A stretch of 48,836 bases of DNA from Escherichia phage T1. Shown piece by piece: positions 1,454-47,327 of this stretch. Location: sequence record NC_005833.1. One strand, 5' to 3'. A program made the translations under genes and the position numbers. The notes beneath the pieces are model-generated. The model worked only from the letters and a program-made list of their open reading frames with translations, searched no databases and had not been told where the DNA came from. Every line of letters begins with the position of its first letter. The stretch's first letter is position 1.

Positions 1454-1499
1454 CACTTTTTGTTAAAACCGGATCGGGGTATCTTGCTATAGTTACCCC
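1450..1499 (+). promoter_or_regulatory. conserved box-hairpin element (ATAGCACTTTTTGTTAAAAC, 22 nt, TATAGT)
   Basis: Box 1450-1469; TTGTTA 1460-1465; 22-nt spacer; TATAGT 1488-1493; inverted repeat GGGGTA 1476-1481 / TACCCC 1494-1499. Confidence 0.6.
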
Positions 1500-1531
1500 A
1501 TCAAAACGAGATACCAATCAGAGGAATCACC

Positions 1532-3389: not shown

Positions 3390-3538
3390 TGACTGCATGG
3401 GTCTTGATTATCTTGATGAGCAAAGGTCCGGATCACGTATACATGGAAAGTCAACAATCATGCAACAAGGCACGGGAAGTTATCGCAGAGAACAAGCCGT
3501 TCGGATATGAAGTAAAAACTATGTGCGTTAAACGATAG
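3389..3538 (+). CDS. small hypothetical protein (49 aa)
   Basis: Manual translation; ATG overlaps upstream TAA (TAATG); stop TAG inside box at 3535. Confidence 0.3.
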   Translation: MTAWVLIILMSKGPDHVYMESQQSCNKAREVIAENKPFGYEVKTMCVKR

Positions 3539-3586
3539 CACGAATTGCTAAACCTTCCGCAAGGCCATTTGATATAGTGGCCTTAT
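3535..3586 (+). promoter_or_regulatory. conserved box-hairpin element
   Basis: ATAGCACGAATTGCTAAAC; TTGCTA 3545-3550; 22-nt spacer; TATAGT 3573-3578; AAGGCCA / TGGCCTT arms. Confidence 0.6.
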
Positions 3587-4141: not shown

Positions 4142-4360
4142 ATGGCTACTATCATGACAGTAGAAGATGCAGCACGCGATGCAGTGGAAGGAATGCGCCC
4201 AAATACCTCCAGAATAGCACACTACTACAAATCTGAGGTGTCGGCAGTGCAATTGGTCCACGAAATTTTAAGGCTCCCACAAGTCGATTCAGCGCGCGTT
4301 GTGACGTGCTTAAAAAATTATTTTTGCATCACTATTAAAACGAATAGCACGAATTGCTAA
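4142..4360 (+). CDS. hypothetical protein (72 aa); a competing 36-aa ORF at 4047..4157 has the better RBS
   Basis: Track ORF; weak RBS; overlaps small ORF 4047..4157. Confidence 0.25.
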   Translation: MATIMTVEDAARDAVEGMRPNTSRIAHYYKSEVSAVQLVHEILRLPQVDSARVVTCLKNYFCITIKTNSTNC

Positions 4361-4395
4361 AACCTATCAAGGGGAATACGCTATGATTCCCCTAC
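4344..4395 (+). promoter_or_regulatory. conserved box-hairpin element
   Basis: ATAGCACGAATTGCTAAAAC; TTGCTA 4354-4359; 22-nt spacer; TATGAT 4382-4387; AGGGGAAT / ATTCCCCT arms. Confidence 0.6.
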
Positions 4396-4417: not shown

Positions 4418-4864
4418 ATGAAACACTTAATCTGCATTGAAGCGCCTAACGATCAATACACCCTGCATGGACTTGGTGTGTTCAAAGGTCACTACATTAC
4501 CGCAGGAACTTACGATGCTCGTCGCGGCGATGGCGACCTAATGATTACGTCAAAAGAAGTAAATCCGTACATCATGCAGAATCTTGGCAATAACGAATAT
4601 ATGGCCTATGGCTGCAACGCGGTGTACAAGCACGTTAAGATCCGCAAGCGTGTTGTGCGTGCATTCAAGAAGATTGCAATTAAATACTGGAAAATGAGCA
4701 AGAAAGATGCCGGACGTTGGGCGCGCAACGTTGCAGATTCATACTTCTATCGTAACGGCGAATCCTGCTACTTCCTGATCGATGAACTTATGGAAAACTA
4801 CGGTGGCGACTTCAGCCAGGGTAGCTTTGATGACTGGGCCAACTATGAGATCAGTTGCTGGTAA
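4418..4864 (+). CDS. hypothetical protein (148 aa)
   Basis: Track ORF after box-hairpin element 4344-4395; RBS GAGGAAG; double stop TAATAG. Confidence 0.5.
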   Translation: MKHLICIEAPNDQYTLHGLGVFKGHYITAGTYDARRGDGDLMITSKEVNPYIMQNLGNNEYMAYGCNAVYKHVKIRKRVVRAFKKIAIKYWKMSKKDAGRWARNVADSYFYRNGESCYFLIDELMENYGGDFSQGSFDDWANYEISCW

Positions 4865-4917
4865 TAGCACGAATTGCTAAAACTTGCTCAAGGGCATTTG
4901 TTAGAATGCCCTTCGTT
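4864..4917 (+). promoter_or_regulatory. conserved box-hairpin element
   Basis: ATAGCACGAATTGCTAAAAC; TTGCTA 4874-4879; 22-nt spacer; TAGAAT 4902-4907; AAGGGCAT / ATGCCCTT arms. Confidence 0.6.
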
Positions 4918-4947: not shown

Positions 4948-5478
4948 ATGGATAAAATCACAATTTGGGGCCAGACAATCAACCTGTTTCTCGGCACGCG
5001 CCGAGTGGCAATCTTTGACTTTGACGGGACACTTAGCGATGGATCTGGTCGACTTCACCTGCTGCCAACAAAGGATTTGCACTTGACTGAAAGCTGGTCT
5101 GAGTTTAACCGAGCGGCAATATTTGATAACCCAATCCAGAGCACGATCGATGTGATGAACTCTATGTTTGCCGCTGGGTATCATGTGATCATTTTAACCG
5201 GGCGAAGTGATGAGGTGCGTTACGCATCTGAGTTATGGCTTAAGCATCACGGCGCTCGATATGATTACTTAGTCATGCGACCGCATACCGACAACCGCAA
5301 AGACACGGTAATGAAAGAAGAGGCAGTGCGCGCTATCGGCATTGATAACATTCTTGCGGCTTGGGATGACTCAGTGAATATAATAAAAAAATTCAGAGAT
5401 CTAGGGATAACCACATATCAGGTTTGTGAATATGCCTGTGATAGTCGAGAGGATTTAAATAGTCATGGTGTCGATTGA
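4948..5478 (+). CDS. HAD-superfamily phosphatase (nucleotidase or polynucleotide 3'-phosphatase-like)
   Basis: HAD motif I FDFDGTL, motif II ILTGR, downstream K and WDDS; RBS GAGGAA. Confidence 0.6.
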   Translation: MDKITIWGQTINLFLGTRRVAIFDFDGTLSDGSGRLHLLPTKDLHLTESWSEFNRAAIFDNPIQSTIDVMNSMFAAGYHVIILTGRSDEVRYASELWLKHHGARYDYLVMRPHTDNRKDTVMKEEAVRAIGIDNILAAWDDSVNIIKKFRDLGITTYQVCEYACDSREDLNSHGVD

Positions 5479-5959
5479 TAACAAATCAATGGTAAGAGAG
5501 TTATTTACTTATTCTGACGGCGTTCTGTATTGGAAGGCCAAATCATCTAAATACAGTAGAGCTAAAATAGGAGGCGCGGCAGGAAGCAAGGATAAAGACG
5601 GATACATAATAATCAGAGTAAGAAACGAAACTAGAGGCGCTCACAGGCTTGTATGGATATACCATAATGGCAAGATACCTGATGGAATGGAGGTAGACCA
5701 TATGGATGGAGACATAACAAACAATAGAATAGAAAACCTAAGATTGGTAACGAGAACCATAAATAACAGGAATCAAAAAAAGAGATCTGATAACACAACC
5801 GGAGTATCCGGTGTAACTTTCATGAAAGATAGAGGAAAGTATAGGGCGCAAGTTAGAAACAAGAGACTCGGGCAGTTCGACACAATAGAAGAGGCCGCCA
5901 AAGCAGTAAAGGATGAGCGGGATAGATTAGGTTTATTCACAAAAAGACACGGGGTGTAA
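5465..5959 (+). CDS. HNH homing endonuclease with AP2-like DNA-binding domain
   Basis: YHNGKIPDGMEVDHMDGDITNNRIENL HNH core plus TGVSGV..KYRAQV AP2-like segment; AGA/ATA-rich codon usage unlike neighbours. Confidence 0.75.
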   Translation: MVSIDNKSMVRELFTYSDGVLYWKAKSSKYSRAKIGGAAGSKDKDGYIIIRVRNETRGAHRLVWIYHNGKIPDGMEVDHMDGDITNNRIENLRLVTRTINNRNQKKRSDNTTGVSGVTFMKDRGKYRAQVRNKRLGQFDTIEEAAKAVKDERDRLGLFTKRHGV

Positions 5960-5961
5960 AC

Positions 5962-6534
5962 ATGAAAACAGCTATCATTTTAAACGGCGCACCTGGTGCG
6001 GGAAAGGACACTATCGGATGCATCCTGGCTGACACTTACGATCATGTAGCGCTACGCAGCTTCAAAGCGCCAATGTTTGAGATTGCCCGAGCAATCCTGG
6101 GTGAGACTAATTTCGAGTATTTCATGTTCTTGTATGAGGACCGTCGCTATAAAGAAGAGCCAGCGTCAATCCTGAACGGTAAAAGCCCGCGCCAGTTTAT
6201 GATCTGGATTAGCGAGGAGGTCATCAAGCCGCAGTTCGGAAATCGCTTCTTCGGTATGCGAGCGGAAAGTAAGGTGAAAGAGTCGCATTCACTTTCGGTA
6301 TTTACTGACGGTGGATTCAAAGACGAGATCTTGCAGATGATTGAAGGTGACATCCAGGTCAAGCTGTGTCGAATCCATCGCAACGGTTGCAACTTTGACA
6401 ACGACAGTCGCGACTATATCTATCTTGACGATATGATCGGGGTCAACGGTTATCAGGAGTGTGACTTCTTTTCTGTCGAAGGCCATCCAGAAATTACCGC
6501 TCAGCACATAGCCGCCACGTTCATCAATAAATAG
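5962..6534 (+). CDS. P-loop nucleotide/polynucleotide kinase
   Basis: Walker A GAPGAGKDT near N-terminus (GKDT as in dNMP kinases); about 190 aa. Confidence 0.6.
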   Translation: MKTAIILNGAPGAGKDTIGCILADTYDHVALRSFKAPMFEIARAILGETNFEYFMFLYEDRRYKEEPASILNGKSPRQFMIWISEEVIKPQFGNRFFGMRAESKVKESHSLSVFTDGGFKDEILQMIEGDIQVKLCRIHRNGCNFDNDSRDYIYLDDMIGVNGYQECDFFSVEGHPEITAQHIAATFINK

Positions 6535-6582
6535 CACGAATTGCTAAAACGTCGGTGTGGTGATTTGATATAGTTACCTCAT
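6531..6582 (+). promoter_or_regulatory. conserved box-hairpin element
   Basis: ATAGCACGAATTGCTAAAAC 6531-6550; 22-nt spacer; TATAGT 6569-6574. Confidence 0.6.
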
Positions 6583-6606
6583 CGACAACGAAGAGAGAAA
6601 ATCGAA

Positions 6607-8311: not shown

Positions 8312-8321
8312 TGAACACTAA

Positions 8322-8342
8322 CCCGCTCCGGCGGGTTTTTTT
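8322..8342 (+). terminator. rho-independent terminator ending early region
   Basis: CCCGC tccg GCGGG followed by T7. Confidence 0.65.
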
Positions 8343-8395
8343 ATGCCTGCAATATGGTAAAATAGCACTAAATGTTAAACAAAGAGGATGTATTT

Positions 8396-15049: not shown

Positions 15050-15070
15050 CATAAAAACACTTTGACGCTT

Positions 15071-15086
15071 TAACAAAAAGTGCTAT
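15071..15086 (-). promoter_or_regulatory. box copy in antisense orientation between Ig-like protein gene and capsid gene
   Basis: Plus strand TAACAAAAAGTGCTAT (reverse complement ATAGCACTTTTTGTTA); plus strand also reads TTGACG-16-TATTAT. Confidence 0.4.
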
Positions 15087-15093
15087 TATTGAA

Positions 15094-18794: not shown

Positions 18795-18850
18795 TTCTGT
18801 AAAATCATCTTATCAACTTTATTCGATTAACTTTTAACAAAAAGTGCTAT
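18795..18850 (-). promoter_or_regulatory. box copy in antisense orientation between major tail and chaperone genes
   Basis: Plus strand TTAACAAAAAGTGCTAT 18834-18850; reverse-strand reading has TAAGAT hexamer 22 nt downstream. Confidence 0.4.
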
Positions 18851-18871
18851 CAACCAATCAGGAGAAACATC

Positions 18872-22776: not shown

Positions 22777-22792
22777 CGCCATATAACAAAAG

Positions 22793-22827
22793 CCCGCCTT
22801 GCGCGGGTTTTTTTGTAGCTGTAGAAT
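22793..22827 (+). promoter_or_regulatory. terminator-promoter composite between M-like and L-like genes
   Basis: Hairpin CCCGC cttg GCGGG plus T7 run; overlapping TTGCGC 22799-22804, 17 nt, TAGAAT 22822-22827. Confidence 0.55.
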
Positions 22828-22855
22828 GGTTGCAGGTAAACAAGAGGAAAAATCA

Positions 22856-24369: not shown

Positions 24370-24965
24370 ATGATGTAAAAGTAATTAAATTGTCAGGTTC
24401 ACTTGGGAGACGCTTCGGCGTCTTTCACCGTTACGCTGTTGACTCTTACCCGGAAGCCATACGGGCGCTATCCAGTCAGGTTGACGGATTTAAAGAATAC
24501 ATGCAAAGCGAGGTAGGATCTCGTAGCAAGTTTGCAATATTTGTGGATGGCGTTAACGTGGGACACCATGAAGAGGAAAAATTCAAGTGCGCGAAAGAGA
24601 TAAGAATCGTACCGATCCCTACTGGCTCTAAGACAGGAGGTCTATTTCAGGTTGTATTGGGCGCGGCAATAATGGTTGCAGCATTCTATACTGGCGGCGC
24701 GTCTCTGGCTTTAATGGGCACAATGTCCTCGTCTCTGTTTATGATGGGCGGCGCTATGGTGCTGGGCGGCGTGATGCAGATGATTTCACCGCAGCCGGGT
24801 GGCGCAAACTTTGAAGTTCAATCAAGCAAGAATAAACCTTCGTACGCGTTCGGCGGTGCTGTCAATACGACGGCGGCGGGATACCCTCTCCCGGTCCCGT
24901 ATGGATATCGCGCCGGAGGTGGGGCAACTTTCTCAGCAGGTTCTTATGCCGAGGATATGAGTTAA
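24366..24965 (+). CDS. tail assembly protein (lambda I-like)
   Basis: 199-aa ORF with Gly/Ala-rich hydrophobic C-terminal half; ATGA overlap with upstream gene. Confidence 0.6.
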   Translation: MNDVKVIKLSGSLGRRFGVFHRYAVDSYPEAIRALSSQVDGFKEYMQSEVGSRSKFAIFVDGVNVGHHEEEKFKCAKEIRIVPIPTGSKTGGLFQVVLGAAIMVAAFYTGGASLALMGTMSSSLFMMGGAMVLGGVMQMISPQPGGANFEVQSSKNKPSYAFGGAVNTTAAGYPLPVPYGYRAGGGATFSAGSYAEDMS

Positions 24966-24971
24966 AATTAA

Positions 24972-25006
24972 CCCGCCTTGCGCGGGTTTTTTTTCGCCTG
25001 TATAAT
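24972..25006 (+). promoter_or_regulatory. terminator-promoter composite between I-like and J-like genes (near-identical second copy)
   Basis: Same CCCGCCTTGCGCGGG + T-run; TTGCGC 24978-24983, 17 nt, TATAAT 25001-25006. Confidence 0.55.
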
Positions 25007-25042
25007 GAGTCCACCGATAAATAGCACAAAAAGGTAAACATC

Positions 25043-40821: not shown

Positions 40822-41955
40822 ATGTCACAAGCTAAAATCACTACCGAGCAACTTATCGAAGAGCGCATGAGCGGCCTGACACTTCGCGAGATCGCGGAAA
40901 AGTACGGTATGCACATTCGCACTGTCGAGGCGCGTCACGCAAAACTTGCAAAAGAAGGCCACTTCCACGGCAACGAGCATGTTGCTAAGATGGTTCCGGA
41001 AGGCTTCATGGTAAAAGGCACGTCAACCATGATTGACGCGGAAGGTAACGAGAAGATTCGTTGGGTTAAGACATCAGTTGATAATGAGCGCCTTGAGGTT
41101 CTAATGGAAAAAGCGCGTGAAGCATTCTGTTCAGAGTTGCCTAAGGCTATTCCATCTGAATCACCTGACGTTAGTTTTGATGAAGACACGCTTGCGATGT
41201 ATCCAGTTTTTGATTTGCACATTGGTGCTCTTGCTCACAAACATGAGTGCGGCGAAAACTACGACACAGCGACAGCAGAGAAGGTTATGAATGGGTTCTT
41301 TGACTACGCTGTAGATAAGGCGCCAAACTCAAAGAATGCCGTATTGGTATTGGGTGGCGATTTCCTACATTACGACTCTTTGGAGTCTAAGACTCCAGCG
41401 TCAGGCCATTACTTAGATTCTGACAGTCGTTACGCTAAGCTTGTTTATGTCGCAATCCGATCAGTACGACGCGCAGTCTCTCGAATGCTGGAGAAGCACC
41501 AAGTTATTGATATTAAAGCAATAAGTGGGAATCACGACGAATCAGGGATGGTTTGGTTGCGCGCTGCGCTTGCTGCATTTTATGAAGATGAGCCGCGCGT
41601 AAATGTTGATGTTAGCCCTGCCGCAATGATGATGACCAGCTTTGGTAAGACCCTTATTGGATACACTCACGGGCATCAAATGCGAAAAGCAGATACTCGA
41701 CTAAGTGTTATGGCAACTGATTTTCGTAAGTTGTTTGGTCAAAGTGATTACGTTTACACGCATAGCGGTCACTGGCACAGTCAAAAGATTACAGAAACAA
41801 ACTTGGGTATTGATGAGGTTCATGGTCAGCTTGGAAGTCCTGACGCATACTCTGCCAATGGCGGTTGGAGGTCTCAGCGTCAAGCTGCTGTGATTGTCTA
41901 TCACAAGGAATTTGGTGAGGTTGGACGATTCATTTGTCGACCTGAAATGTTCTAA
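40822..41955 (+). CDS. HTH domain fused to calcineurin-like metallophosphoesterase
   Basis: N-terminal HTH-like LTLREIAEKYGMHIRTV; C-terminal GGDFLHYD and ISGNHDE metallophosphatase motifs. Confidence 0.6.
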   Translation: MSQAKITTEQLIEERMSGLTLREIAEKYGMHIRTVEARHAKLAKEGHFHGNEHVAKMVPEGFMVKGTSTMIDAEGNEKIRWVKTSVDNERLEVLMEKAREAFCSELPKAIPSESPDVSFDEDTLAMYPVFDLHIGALAHKHECGENYDTATAEKVMNGFFDYAVDKAPNSKNAVLVLGGDFLHYDSLESKTPASGHYLDSDSRYAKLVYVAIRSVRRAVSRMLEKHQVIDIKAISGNHDESGMVWLRAALAAFYEDEPRVNVDVSPAAMMMTSFGKTLIGYTHGHQMRKADTRLSVMATDFRKLFGQSDYVYTHSGHWHSQKITETNLGIDEVHGQLGSPDAYSANGGWRSQRQAAVIVYHKEFGEVGRFICRPEMF

Positions 41956-42010
41956 ATAGCACCTTTTGTTAAAACAGTACCCGCGAAAGCGGGTATTATT
42001 GTTTTATAGA
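41956..42010 (+). promoter_or_regulatory. conserved box-hairpin element upstream of HNH gene
   Basis: ATAGCACCTTTTGTTAAAAC; TTGTTA 41966-41971; 22-nt spacer; TATTAT 41994-41999; CCCGCGAAAGCGGG inverted repeat. Confidence 0.55.
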
Positions 42011-42027
42011 AACAAGAGGAGATTGCA

Positions 42028-42510
42028 ATGAACTGGCACGAGCATTACGAATATAGGGATGGTGTTCTATATCACAAGGTAAAGCCATGCAGAAGGCATG
42101 ATGTAAATATTGGGGATGTTGCTGGAAGGGTTGCCAAAAACGGCTATCACTATGTTGTTCACAAGAACAGGCCGTATAAGAGATCTCGAGTTATATGGGA
42201 GATGTTTAATGGTGAGATACCAGATGGTTTTGTTATAGATCATCTGAATCACAATGCCACCGATGATAGGATCGATAACCTTGAGTGTAAGCCAAGAAGA
42301 GAGAATATGGTTAATGTTAAGTTAAGGATTGATAGCACGACCGGAGTAACTGGCGTATCAAGAAAGAGGGATAACAAGTGGAGGGCGTACATAACAATTA
42401 TGGGTAAGCAGAAGTGCAAGAGCTTTGACACGTTTGAGGAAGCTTGCGCGCAGAGGATTGAATGGTCAGTAACTCATGATTTTCACCCAAATCACGGTGG
42501 AACATACTAA
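42028..42510 (+). CDS. HNH homing endonuclease with AP2-like domain
   Basis: GEIPDGFVIDHLNHNATDDRIDNL HNH core, TGVTGVS..KWRAYI AP2-like segment; AGA/AGG/ATA-rich codons. Confidence 0.75.
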   Translation: MNWHEHYEYRDGVLYHKVKPCRRHDVNIGDVAGRVAKNGYHYVVHKNRPYKRSRVIWEMFNGEIPDGFVIDHLNHNATDDRIDNLECKPRRENMVNVKLRIDSTTGVTGVSRKRDNKWRAYITIMGKQKCKSFDTFEEACAQRIEWSVTHDFHPNHGGTY

Positions 42511-42560
42511 TAGCACCTTTTACCTAACCCGCGCCACAGAAGTGCGGCATAGTAACCACA
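42510..42560 (+). promoter_or_regulatory. diverged box-hairpin element
   Basis: ATAGCACCTTTTACCTAA; 22-nt spacer; CATAGT 42548-42553; CGCGCCACAGAAGTGCGGC region. Confidence 0.45.
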
Positions 42561-42582
42561 TCGAAAACAGAGATGCTATATC

Positions 42583-44516: not shown

Positions 44517-46085
44517 TTAACCCATCAGTCGAGGATTGATGAAAACAATATCATCAATCCGGCAAGTGTAGTTCATCTCTTCGAGCGTGATCAGCAGGCT
44601 GTCGATTCGCTCAGCTACTTTTTGTTGACCGTTGAACGGCGTAACGTTACGGCACTTTGCAACAATGCTATGAATAGGTGCGCGACCTTTGTTCTTCTTT
44701 GCGATCTCAGTGATAACATCAATCAGCTTACGAGATTCAGCCTCATCACCAGCATACCCGGCGGCGCTGGCAGACGACAGATAGGTTCTGGAAAGCTCAT
44801 TGAAAATCATGATCGCTTCCTGCATTGTTTCAAGGTCAATCTCACGGTTGGAACGGTTCGGTGATTCACCCTCCCAGTTCTTGATTGTGTGAAGAACTGA
44901 AGCAATGCGCAAAGCGTGCTTATCGAACTTGCCGAGATGACCGCGTAGCATTGAGTGAGAGTATTTGCCCCCGGCTGCGAAATCCGGCTCCATAGCCTGG
45001 CGAGCAAGGTTTAATTCACGCATAGCATTACGGCTTACAGAGAGAACAACGTTGTCCTCCTTCATAATGTTGTGCACAAGTCGATAATATTTACTCACCA
45101 ATCCTCGATCGACTTCCTTATACAGTGCATCACCATTTTCATCGCAAAGAATACGAGTGCCTAAAAGAGGTTCCTCGCGAACCAATAGGAAACGCTCAGA
45201 TACACCGATACCGCGCTGGCCTGCGTCCATGATACCCTTGATTGTTTCATCCTGCGCAATGACGCAGATCGAACCGACCGGGCAAAGAGATAAGTTATTG
45301 TCCTGATTTGAACGCGCAACCTCCATATGGTTTTTATCCCACGCCTTGAGGATAAGCTCGCTGTTTGATTTCTTATCAGAACCGCCATAAGTCAGGCCAA
45401 GCAATGTATTTATTGCCGTTGCCTCATCAGAGATTACGGAAAAGTGGCCTTGAACAGCAGCTACTTTCGCAAGACCTTCCGGTGTAGGATCTGATACCGC
45501 GAAAACAATATCAGCCATCTTCTTGATCTTCTCTTCCAGTTTTTCCTTGTCCTCGTACAGCGCCGCCGTCGTGTTACCCTTCGGATCGTTTTTGATTTCC
45601 TTCTCGATCTGACGTAGCTGACTGGTTAAACGGATACGTTCCTTTTTGCGCTCTTCATTCAGTCTCTGAATCTCTGCGCGCATAGGTGTAATCGCCGCTG
45701 AGTTAATCGCGGATTTACCTGTTGATGGTGGCTGGCTAATCACCATATAAAGAGCGGTCGGTTGTTCTTCTCCGTGATATTGCACCCAAAACTTCCCTAG
45801 CATCGCGGCTGAGATGCACCCAATGAAATGAGCGTACGCAGACGAAACAGGAAACTGTACAGACTCAGCTTTTGCTTTTGCATATTCGAATACCAGGTTA
45901 TCGCCACCTAACGAAATCAGCGGGAACTTATCGTTTCCACTGTTGATATCGATCGGGTCTTGCCAAAACGAAACTGAATCCCCGTAGCTGTTTTCACGAA
46001 TTGCGATCGCCACCGGATTAACTCCAGTGCTATTTGCGATCTCAATAATCTGTTGGTAATTCAGTTTTGGCTTAATATTAAACAT
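44517..46085 (-). CDS. P-loop NTPase (possible replication-associated ATPase)
   Basis: Track ORF 44517..46148; start refined to Met 46085 (ATG sharing one base with HNH stop); Walker A-like QPPSTGKS. Confidence 0.55.
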   Translation of the reverse strand: MFNIKPKLNYQQIIEIANSTGVNPVAIAIRENSYGDSVSFWQDPIDINSGNDKFPLISLGGDNLVFEYAKAKAESVQFPVSSAYAHFIGCISAAMLGKFWVQYHGEEQPTALYMVISQPPSTGKSAINSAAITPMRAEIQRLNEERKKERIRLTSQLRQIEKEIKNDPKGNTTAALYEDKEKLEEKIKKMADIVFAVSDPTPEGLAKVAAVQGHFSVISDEATAINTLLGLTYGGSDKKSNSELILKAWDKNHMEVARSNQDNNLSLCPVGSICVIAQDETIKGIMDAGQRGIGVSERFLLVREEPLLGTRILCDENGDALYKEVDRGLVSKYYRLVHNIMKEDNVVLSVSRNAMRELNLARQAMEPDFAAGGKYSHSMLRGHLGKFDKHALRIASVLHTIKNWEGESPNRSNREIDLETMQEAIMIFNELSRTYLSSASAAGYAGDEAESRKLIDVITEIAKKNKGRAPIHSIVAKCRNVTPFNGQQKVAERIDSLLITLEEMNYTCRIDDIVFINPRLMG

Positions 46086-46624
46086 CACAATAAACTCCTT
46101 AGTTGACGGCGTGAATGATACACCGTCAATGGTACACGCGTTTTGCAAAAAGTGCTATTCGATCCGTGATTCTCATGAAAACCGTATAGCCTTTCCGCTT
46201 CCTTCCTTGCTTTAGCCGCTGCATCCAGCGTCATGAAGGTCCCTAAGTGTTTTGTCTTTTTATTTATGGTTATGTTTGCCGTGTATCTATTTGTTTTTTT
46301 ATTCCAATACACTCCCATAACTCCTGTGTTTGATGACACTACTCCCTTGTTTCTTAGGTTGTCTTGCCTAGTTACTAGCCTGAGATTCTCAATTCTGTTA
46401 TCGTCTCTTTCATGGTTTATGTGGTCTACATCCATTCCTTCTGGTATGTTTCCGTAGTGTATTTTCCATACTATTCGATGGGCGTATTCAAATACACCTC
46501 CTGGAAAACATATTGACCGATAACCTTTTTTATTAACAGTTCCGGCAAGTAGATTTCGTCTTCTTCCGATTCTCCACTCTTTCCAGTACAGTCTCCCGCT
46601 AACGTATTTCAGTTCATCTTTCAT
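46085..46624 (-). CDS. HNH homing endonuclease with AP2-like domain
   Basis: GNIPEGMDVDHINHERDDNRIENL core; AGA/ATA-rich codons; last 25 codons read through a box-hairpin element. Confidence 0.75.
   Translation of the reverse strand: MKDELKYVSGRLYWKEWRIGRRRNLLAGTVNKKGYRSICFPGGVFEYAHRIVWKIHYGNIPEGMDVDHINHERDDNRIENLRLVTRQDNLRNKGVVSSNTGVMGVYWNKKTNRYTANITINKKTKHLGTFMTLDAAAKARKEAERLYGFHENHGSNSTFCKTRVPLTVYHSRRQLRSLL
46100..46160 (-). promoter_or_regulatory. conserved box-hairpin element, reverse strand, inside 3' end of HNH ORF
   Basis: Reverse complement reads ATAGCACTTTTTGCAAAA, 22 nt, TATCAT, then RBS and ATG of P-loop NTPase gene. Confidence 0.55.
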
Positions 46625-47037
46625 AAGTATTTACTCTCAAAGGTTGTGCCGTCTGCGATACTAAAACCAACCTCTTCGCGGAATAAGGTCCAGCGGCAAC
46701 CGTCCTCATCAAAGATGTAACCAGCTACGCCTCCAAGAGCGCGACCGCTTTCTACCTGGTAACGCTTTCCAACCTTGAATGATTTTTTCATTGGGTTGCG
46801 ATGGTCAAGTCCGGTGCACTTGAGCGTCTTTGTTTTCAACTCGGTGAACTTCGCGAAGAAGATTTCATCAGATCCGTGAATATGTAATTCATCATGCTTT
46901 TCAAGTTTTAAATACTTCCCGCATTTTAACTTTACTTCACGAGTATCATCATAGCGCTCACGACCTTTGTACAGATTGTTTACTTCGAATCCTGTGATTT
47001 TGTCTGCGGAAGTGCATTTAAGTTTGATTGATTTCAT
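46621..47037 (-). CDS. hypothetical protein (138 aa)
   Basis: Track reverse ORF downstream of reverse-oriented box element. Confidence 0.45.
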   Translation of the reverse strand: MKSIKLKCTSADKITGFEVNNLYKGRERYDDTREVKLKCGKYLKLEKHDELHIHGSDEIFFAKFTELKTKTLKCTGLDHRNPMKKSFKVGKRYQVESGRALGGVAGYIFDEDGCRWTLFREEVGFSIADGTTFESKYL

Positions 47038-47059
47038 TGTGTTCGCTCCTGATTGGTTA

Positions 47060-47117
47060 TCTTGAATAAGGCCACTTTATCAAATGACCTTACGGCAATA
47101 TTAACAAATCGTGCTAT
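47060..47117 (-). promoter_or_regulatory. conserved box-hairpin element, reverse strand
   Basis: Reverse complement reads ATAGCACGATTTGTTAA, 22 nt, TAAAGT, with AAGGTCA / TGGCCTT arms. Confidence 0.55.
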
Positions 47118-47327
47118 TTACCAGGGAATATAATCGTCAACGTCCTCATTAATATCATCACCGGGTAACTCAAAGTTAGGATCGTATTCGCTTTCAGCAT
47201 CCATATCCATATCACCAAGAGCCTCGTCAAGTGTGATTTCTTTATATGCTACCTTGATGCACCATTCGGAACTAAGTCCGGCATCAAGCGCTGCAAAATA
47301 ACGAGTCCAGAAATTATCTTGTTCCAT
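47118..47327 (-). CDS. small acidic protein with SSB C-terminal-tail-like tip (..DVDDYIPW)
   Basis: 69 aa, highly acidic C-terminal half; last residues resemble this phage's SSB tail ..FDDDIPF. Confidence 0.5.
   Translation of the reverse strand: MEQDNFWTRYFAALDAGLSSEWCIKVAYKEITLDEALGDMDMDAESEYDPNFELPGDDINEDVDDYIPW

Follow-up and report, generated by a model that had tools for sequence, protein, structure and literature searches.

A putative HNH-AP2 endonuclease gene of phage T1 probably inserted upstream of, and read through, an existing box-hairpin element

The T1 HNH-AP2 gene among described systems

Free-standing homing endonuclease genes located between phage genes, exemplified by the seg and mob genes of T4, are known for intronless homing. 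The locus described here is similar in that a small nuclease gene is wedged between conserved genes, is present or absent among close relatives, and has divergent flanks. I-HmuI, the HNH homing endonuclease of Bacillus phage SPO1, is intron-encoded, and its C-terminal DNA-binding module is of another kind. The T1 protein resembles it in the N-terminal HNH domain but is free-standing and has a C-terminal half that is AP2/ERF-like. Stop and start codons that overlap as UGAUG are associated with coupled translation, the E. coli trp operon being an example. The same five bases (TGATG) occur in T1, where the overlap is inherited from DNA that was noncoding upstream of the ATG.

The same domain pair is encoded by other HNH-AP2 genes of the Drexlerviridae, namely, TLS endY and those of Salmonella phage F61, BEK7, Eco_BIFF, and the metagenomic P0002 and P0003. 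These genes share the neighborhood of the T1 gene (from a homologue of a 138-aa gene to a DUF3987 gene), overlap the upstream gene as ATGA, and are sporadically present. They stop 1 to 13 residues after an HG motif, either at their own stop codon (Tempevirinae) or at a stop within a repeated box, whereas a 25-residue run-on is confined to the T1/JMPW2 copy. Repositioning of HNH genes among T1, KanT1, and phi2013 was noted in a 2026 paper (PMC13164509).

The window analyzed here is a 48,836-nt stretch of Escherichia phage T1 (NC_005833.1). A 179-aa open reading frame (ORF) on its reverse strand (46085..46624) encodes a free-standing putative endonuclease with HNH_3 and AP2-like regions, based on the ORF translation and Pfam. 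The HNH_3 domain at residues 47 to 91 scored 77.5 bits against a Pfam cutoff of 24.8, which places the protein in this family, and the AP2 match at residues 100 to 146 was subthreshold (28.4 bits against a cutoff of 33.3). A profile built from 71 family members matched the HNH domain of I-HmuI (PDB 1u3e; E value of 7.6e-11; profile positions 27 to 102) as well as the plant AP2/ERF chains 7wq5 (7.6e-5) and 7et4 (1.7e-4), and the HNH motif residues D67, H68, N80, and N89 are invariant in the alignment of 71 family sequences. The AlphaFold2 model, computed from a 71-sequence alignment that left out the Eco_BIFF row, has block-mean pLDDT values above 90 for residues 1 to 150, except for the linker block at residues 91 to 100 (74), and contains three predicted strands followed by a helix at residues 105 to 147.

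The start codon of the HNH ORF and the TGA that ends the upstream 138-aa gene (46621..47037, reverse strand) overlap as ATGA, and the 3' end of that gene is the constant left landmark of the HNH insertion. Downstream on the same strand lies the gene for a 522-aa DUF3987 protein (44517..46085), identified with Pfam and annotated as a helicase in relatives. The region from 45400 to 47100 shares 99.9% identity with Tunavirus T1 isolate 22 and 99.6% with phage JMPW2; at 99% identity or above, this HNH gene was found only in T1, T1 isolate 22, and JMPW2. T1 contains two paralogues, which are also HNH_3 and AP2 genes, and all three are missing from most Tunavirus genomes.

The 25-residue tail and the DNA that encodes it

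The conserved part of the HNH ORF ends ...YGFHENHG at G154 (codon 46165..46163). An earlier note on this DNA had claimed that the ORF runs 25 codons past GFHENHG, and we located this tail, SNSTFCKTRVPLTVYHSRRQLRSLL, at 46162..46088 on the reverse strand (46085..46162 with the stop codon). The note was also correct that the other two HNH genes stop soon after the motif: the ORF at 5465..5959 (forward strand) ends ...KRHGV*, 1 residue past HG, and that at 42028..42510 (forward strand) ends ...HPNHGGTY*, 3 residues past HG. Among 99 homologues with the ..NHG motif, the median extension after HG is 3 residues, with at most 6 residues in 80 homologues and at least 20 in only 4, and the tblastn alignments of closer homologues mostly end at query residue 154 or 155. 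The tail itself is carried only by the three nearly identical genomes. The tblastn matches to two Salmonella phages, Skate and PJN025, seemingly span the tail; the gene map of Skate (Skatevirus), the only one of the two inspected, has a different neighborhood, and its match was taken as a chance extension.

Reading the tail DNA on the reverse strand confirms the claim that it consists of the box, spacer, and ribosome-binding site (RBS) of the downstream gene. The 21-nt box (46139..46159; AATAGCACTTTTTGCAAAACG) is a member of the T1-family repeat, with one mismatch to the search pattern, and is a variant, TTTTTGCAAAAC, without the frame-1 TAA. This family was reported as a 21-nt direct repeat, aaATAGCACnnnTTGnTAAAA, in TLS, T1, and Rtp (PMC11447400); the present copy agrees with it in sequence, is likewise oriented with transcription, and lies 74 nt before the ATG, compared with about 76 nt in TLS in the available text of that source. 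A 9-nt spacer separates the box (46159..46139) from a hairpin (46103..46129) with arms TTGACGGTG (46129..46121) and CGCCGTCAA (46111..46103) and loop TATCATTCA. Between the arms is a -10-like hexamer, TATCAT (46115..46120), 22 nt downstream of the TGNTA in the box, and the AAGGAG RBS of the DUF3987 gene follows at 46095..46100. The HNH stop, TGA (46087..46085), shares A46085 with the DUF3987 start codon (46085..46083), again as had been claimed. An open frame across such a stretch is not rare in itself, as 36% of all 72-nt frames in T1 are free of stops.

How the frame comes to remain open here can be seen from the other copies of the box. A canonical box has built-in stops, TAG at positions 3 to 5 and TAA at positions 16 to 18. 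Our pattern search recovered 23 copies in T1, to which one further degenerate copy at 42509 can be added. The TAA is present in frame 1, the frame of the HNH ORF, in 22 of these 23 boxes, and the frame-3 TAG is present in 21. The sole box without the frame-1 TAA is the copy at 46159, which has TGCAAAAC instead of TGYTAAAAC, and the T1 read-through occurs because this usual stop is missing. Many other T1 ORFs do end in or at a box, examples being two at the TAA (...NSIFS* and ...NSTNC*) and three at the TAG.

Related HNH genes at the same site also end within the box. The metagenomic P0002 (78% identical) comes from a 51-kb T1-like contig (L023); it shares the T1 junction, CACGGATCAAATAGCAC, and uses the box TAA as its stop (HGSNSTYC*). 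For P0003 (metagenomic, 74% identical; L024), the stop is the box TAG and the ending is ...HGTSIPNQ*. At the same site, the HNH gene of Eco_BIFF is a different one (44% identical), and its stop is a TGA that two changes have created within the box, giving the mutated form AATAGCATTTTTTGAAAAAC. The last 24 nt of this HNH gene are identical despite the different body. Upstream of the HNH gene, about 70 nt at the end of the preceding gene are divergent in Eco_BIFF, resembling a co-converted flank. From these sequence comparisons, the HNH genes at T1-type loci are read as having no stop codon of their own and using stops inside the box instead.

The insertion site with and without the HNH gene

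In Shigella phage SH6, which is without the HNH gene, the 138-aa gene ends ...AAATACTTATAA and is followed by CC and then by the same box, hairpin, RBS, and GTGATG. Nine more Tunavirus loci from IMG/VR are arranged as in SH6, with a box-hairpin-RBS segment that is at least 90% identical, intergenic, and positioned right after the upstream stop. In a multiple alignment, the indel is bounded on the left by TTAT(G/A)A and on the right by (TCG/CC)AATAGCAC; between T1 and SH6, this indel is clean and leaves the box-hairpin in place. When 271 nt spanning the HNH-less junction (...TACTTATAACCAATAGCAC...) were used as a query, 53 of 58 phage records matched in one piece with an uninterrupted ...TTATAA CC AATAGCAC and contained an intact intergenic box-hairpin and no HNH gene. 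The earlier note had proposed an insertion just upstream of an existing regulatory element, to be checked in relatives lacking the gene, where absence of the box would have spoken against it; in these relatives, the box is present and intergenic, which bears out the proposal.

The presence or absence of the HNH gene at one site among otherwise near-identical genomes identifies it as a mobile gene, and we infer that it moves by homing. By the same comparisons, the last 24 tail codons and the stop are preexisting intergenic DNA, and the nucleotides underlying the tail are conserved because they form a regulatory element and not because they encode protein. The HNH-less genomes carry a variant box at this locus, either TGCAAAAC or TGTAAAAC, together with GTGATG. 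The box variant was therefore neither shaped by the HNH gene nor an adaptation to it, and the identical GTGATG implies that the overlap of stop and start codons was not created by or for the HNH gene.

These observations weigh against the alternative that the extension has been selected, either because the TGATG couples translation of the HNH gene to that of the DUF3987 gene or because a tail made basic by four R and one K helps the enzyme to bind DNA or RNA. Termination at a stop sharing one base with the downstream ATG would allow coupling, and with it a possible side benefit, and the passage of ribosomes along the tail would open up the hairpin and RBS region. However, genomes without the HNH gene have the identical 75 nt, variant box and GTGATG included, the closest HNH relatives at this site end no more than 6 residues after HG, and the DUF3987 gene retains its own box, -10-like hexamer, and AAGGAG. 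The tail is moreover predicted to be disordered, with pLDDT values below 50 for residues 157 to 171 and no secondary structure in the AlphaFold2 model past the helix at residues 133 to 147. We consider selection for the extension very unlikely. The tail is presumably translated and is probably a neutral, passive appendage that is likely unstructured.

A second alternative holds that the HNH gene is ancestral at the locus and was lost from most Tunavirus genomes, in which case the box would not be a preexisting element on the target side. Loss does happen: one locus (L018) derives from a BIFF-type locus by an imprecise deletion that left the mutated box in place and removed the end of the upstream gene. 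This imprecision contrasts with the one clean junction common to 53 records. In two more distant loci, only 2 nt separate the upstream stop from the box (...TAA CC AATAGCAC in L036, with 57% DUF3987 identity, and ...TAA CA AATAGCAC in L019, with 80%), an arrangement that makes the HNH-less state look ancestral. The site is moreover occupied by two HNH bodies that are unrelated (44% identical), which fits repeated invasion, and ancestral presence followed by loss appears highly improbable.

The order of genes in the Tempevirinae (TLS-like and Hanrivervirus loci) is the 138-aa-gene homologue, an HNH gene or none, a small ORF, the box, and the DUF3987 gene. The small ORF between the HNH gene and the box encodes about 81 aa and ends ...VERIK*. 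In both subfamilies, the HNH start overlaps the stop of the 138-aa gene as ATGA, which makes the 3' end of this gene, and not the box, the landmark that stays constant across insertions. The closest GenBank homologue in the Tempevirinae, from Salmonella phage F61 (57% identical), has an HNH gene with its own TGA, ending ...CACGGAGTTACAGCATGA, followed by the small ORF ending ...GAGCGGATCAAATAGCAC (its end is also given as ...CGGATCAAATAGCAC). A deletion between the two CGGA strings of F61 would yield the exact junction of T1 and L023 and could be the origin of the stop-less gene, which is only suggestive, as the match extends 4 nt beyond the bases forced by the HG codons.

The same comparison could be taken to mean that the T1 gene is decaying, its native 3' end and stop having been deleted and the read-through marking a loss of function. 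The missing stop and the possible derivation of the T1/L023 junction from an F61-like arrangement with its own TGA and small ORF are compatible with decay. On the other hand, the invariant residues D67, H68, N80, and N89 are retained, the fold is predicted with high confidence, and the protein is 99 to 100% identical in three independently sequenced genomes. Furthermore, the T1 junction has been retained in a relative with 78% identity (L023), which implies long persistence under constraint. A gene in decay is in our judgment quite unlikely.

We instead regard it as highly probable that a mobile, stop-less HNH-AP2 gene was inserted before the preexisting box-hairpin of the DUF3987 gene and that the tail is a passive by-product. 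A free-standing gene of the homing type would have become wedged between the stop of the 138-aa gene and the DUF3987 box-hairpin module. As it is a cassette without its own stop, translation would run into the following DNA and end at whichever in-frame stop comes first. A canonical box would provide that stop, whereas the natural variant found here would let ribosomes go on through the spacer, hairpin, and RBS up to the TGA whose overlap with the DUF3987 ATG was already in place. The evidence points to the read-through being an ordinary footprint of a homing-type endonuclease gene and not a new function. For annotation, this would mean that the last 24 codons of the T1 endonuclease are regulatory DNA read as protein and not a family-specific C-terminal domain. 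It would also mean that a mobile nuclease gene can persist without its own stop by using those in a repeated regulatory box of its host.

The box-hairpin module

A by-product of this analysis is a clearer picture of the box module: it carries stops of its own, holds a -10-like hexamer at a constant distance, and includes a hairpin whose pairing looks RNA-like. The hexamer is located exactly 38 nt after the A of ATAGCAC (22 nt after TGNTA) in 14 of the 23 T1 boxes and within 1 to 3 nt of this position in 3 more. Across 18 orthologous regions upstream of DUF3987 genes, which often have TATAAT as the hexamer, its columns T40, A41, and T45 do not vary. A sigma-70 consensus scan of 45800..47300 found no promoter at the element and no -35 hexamer at 16 to 18 bp; TTGCAA lies 22 bp from TATCAT, and the element has the -10-like part alone and not a canonical sigma-70 promoter. 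The box also holds a partial palindrome, TAGCA-N5-TGCTA, whose center would be near -42 if transcription is assumed to start 7 nt after the hexamer. We found no mapped transcription start sites for Drexlerviridae in the literature. The box and TATCAT together are a putative promoter.

Several known types of element were compared with the module. The sigma-54 promoter consensus is TGGCAC-N5-TTGC, with GG and GC dinucleotides 12 nt apart. The box reads TAGCAC-N3-TTGC, with AG and not GG and an offset of 10 nt, and a sigma-54 promoter was rejected. A lambda nut-like boxA/boxB arrangement was likewise rejected, given about 23 copies per genome, a loop that is the -10-like hexamer, and the lack of an RNA-family match: an Rfam scan of 45500..47300 gave no match at an E value of 1 or below, including nut- and put-type antitermination sites. 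A scan of 45800..47300 found no terminator-like site at 46085..46162, where the hairpin is followed by CTAAGGAG and does not qualify as an intrinsic terminator. In its available text, the paper that reported the repeat leaves its function open as a stoperator, enhancer site, or UP-like element (PMC11447400). A term search of that text returned no hairpin or stem-loop, an inverted repeat only for a holin gene, and TATAAT only within a methods consensus, and we found no mention there of a -10-like hexamer at a fixed offset or of built-in stop codons.

The hairpins of orthologous loci covary, with 12 distinct stems among 18 loci that all form 8 or 9 of 9 pairs in register through compensatory changes. 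Internal mismatches in 54 unique box-associated stems comprise 23 G-T, 3 A-C, and 8 others, compared with 83 G-T, 55 A-C, and 288 others in chance stems from T1 coding DNA. Some box-associated copies have GAAA or TTCG tetraloops. Stem covariation, the mismatch pattern, and the tetraloops together point to pairing in the sense-strand RNA. Given the assumed start site, both arms of the hairpin would be contained in read-through transcripts only. On this reading of the sequence, the mRNA of the HNH gene is necessarily a read-through transcript of this kind, and its ribosomes would cross the hairpin. The likely source of the transcript for the 138-aa and HNH genes is the next promoter-like module upstream, whose box is located at 47098..47118 on the reverse strand.

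Tentatively, the box-hairpin may be an undescribed, compact intercistronic unit of the Drexlerviridae, a possibility we hold to be less likely than not. Such a unit would combine stops in two frames to end any gene upstream of it, an RNA hairpin acting on read-through transcripts alone (for example, in 3'-end protection or partial termination), and a promoter that has no -35 hexamer and whose partly palindromic box near -42 would recruit RNA polymerase, possibly via an extra factor. If so, the HNH tail would be the sole place in T1 where ribosomes translate through the hairpin, making it a natural perturbation of the module. The box-hairpin is the less understood object at this locus and is worth a separate study. 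A second natural case of an ORF crossing the element is found in L018, where the truncated upstream gene continues in a different frame across the box and hairpin and ends ...GYIFD-RIAFFEKRVYHWRCIIHAVN*.

HNH genes of T1 and the corresponding site in relatives

In Eco_BIFF (L003:2246-2800), the site of the third T1 HNH gene, which follows the gene for a 138-aa protein (the upstream gene), holds a different HNH gene, 44% identical to that of T1. The two nonetheless have their final 24 nt, ggttttcatgagaatcacggatcg, in common, and the upstream gene of Eco_BIFF diverges over approximately its last 70 nt, as expected for a co-converted flank. A deletion derivative of a BIFF-type locus is found in an IMG/VR genome of 50,414 bp (L018:1560-1680), from which the HNH gene and the final 29 codons of the upstream gene have been removed; the truncated upstream gene continues in frame 2 across both box and hairpin and ends at the TAA in CAACTAAGGAG. 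Members of the Tempevirinae (L007:1162-1904, L006:1162-1888, and L026:687-1432) share the order of 138-aa-gene homologue, HNH gene, and a small ORF that ends ...VERIK-stop and directly adjoins the box. Judging from the sequences, a CGGA-to-CGGA deletion in the Tempevirinae arrangement would recreate the T1 junction, where the 3' end of the HNH gene lies against the box.

Box-hairpin modules flank the second T1 HNH gene (42028..42510) on either side (window 41955-42571); the downstream box, at 42509, is degenerate, and its first two bases are shared with the TAA of the HNH gene. Missing from most Tunavirus genomes, the first HNH gene (5465..5959) sits between a HAD/PNKP-phosphatase ORF, which it overlaps, and a P-loop ORF with a kinase annotation, stopping 2 nt short of the latter (window 4948-6534).

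Stop codons built into the box

In its canonical form, the box carries TAG at positions 3 to 5 and TAA at positions 16 to 18. Pattern search identified 23 boxes in T1; examples are located at 1449, 2268, 4863, 6530, 38952, and 41955 on the forward strand and at 47118, 46159, and 35996 on the reverse strand. Most genes upstream of boxes in the T1 window have their stop codon in or at the box, and two T1 ORFs have acquired box-encoded C termini (...NSIFS-stop and ...NSTNC-stop). The box also contains a partial palindrome, TAGCA-N5-TGCTA.

Hexamer, hairpins, and leader

In a number of box copies in the window, TGNTA is followed at a fixed 22 nt by a -10-like hexamer (TATAGT, TATAAT, or TATGAT), as at 1449-1511, 2268-2330, 3534-3582, 4343-4391, 4863-4911, 6530-6592, and, on the reverse strand, 47118-47060. 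None of these copies has a -35 element 16 to 18 bp from the hexamer, and the available portion of the TLS phage paper (PMC11447400) does not mention the fixed-offset hexamer.

Across the window boxes and the compared loci of relatives (L001-L039), inverted repeats adjoining or surrounding the hexamer show covariation, internal stem mismatches are predominantly G-T (23, versus 3 A-C), and the loop of some hairpins is GAAA or TTCG (window 39976 and 41956; L035 and L038). Together, these features suggest that the box hairpins are structures formed at the RNA level, which would be present solely in read-through transcripts. Between the box hairpin and the ribosome-binding site, the leader contains an A/C-rich motif, CATCGACAACGA or a variant of it (for example, window 1497-1511, 2316-2330, 6578-6592, and 42558-42571).

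Repeats in the late region

Two perfect box copies lie antisense within the late (structural) gene block, at 15069-15087 and 18833-18851 on the reverse strand; the usual hexamer and hairpin are absent at both. The late region also contains repeated terminator-like hairpins, CCCGC...GCGGGTTTTTTT (8312-8356, 22784-22828, and 24963-25007), each with TGTAGAATG, TGTATAATG, or a similar sequence directly 3', and these combinations may represent terminator-promoter pairs.
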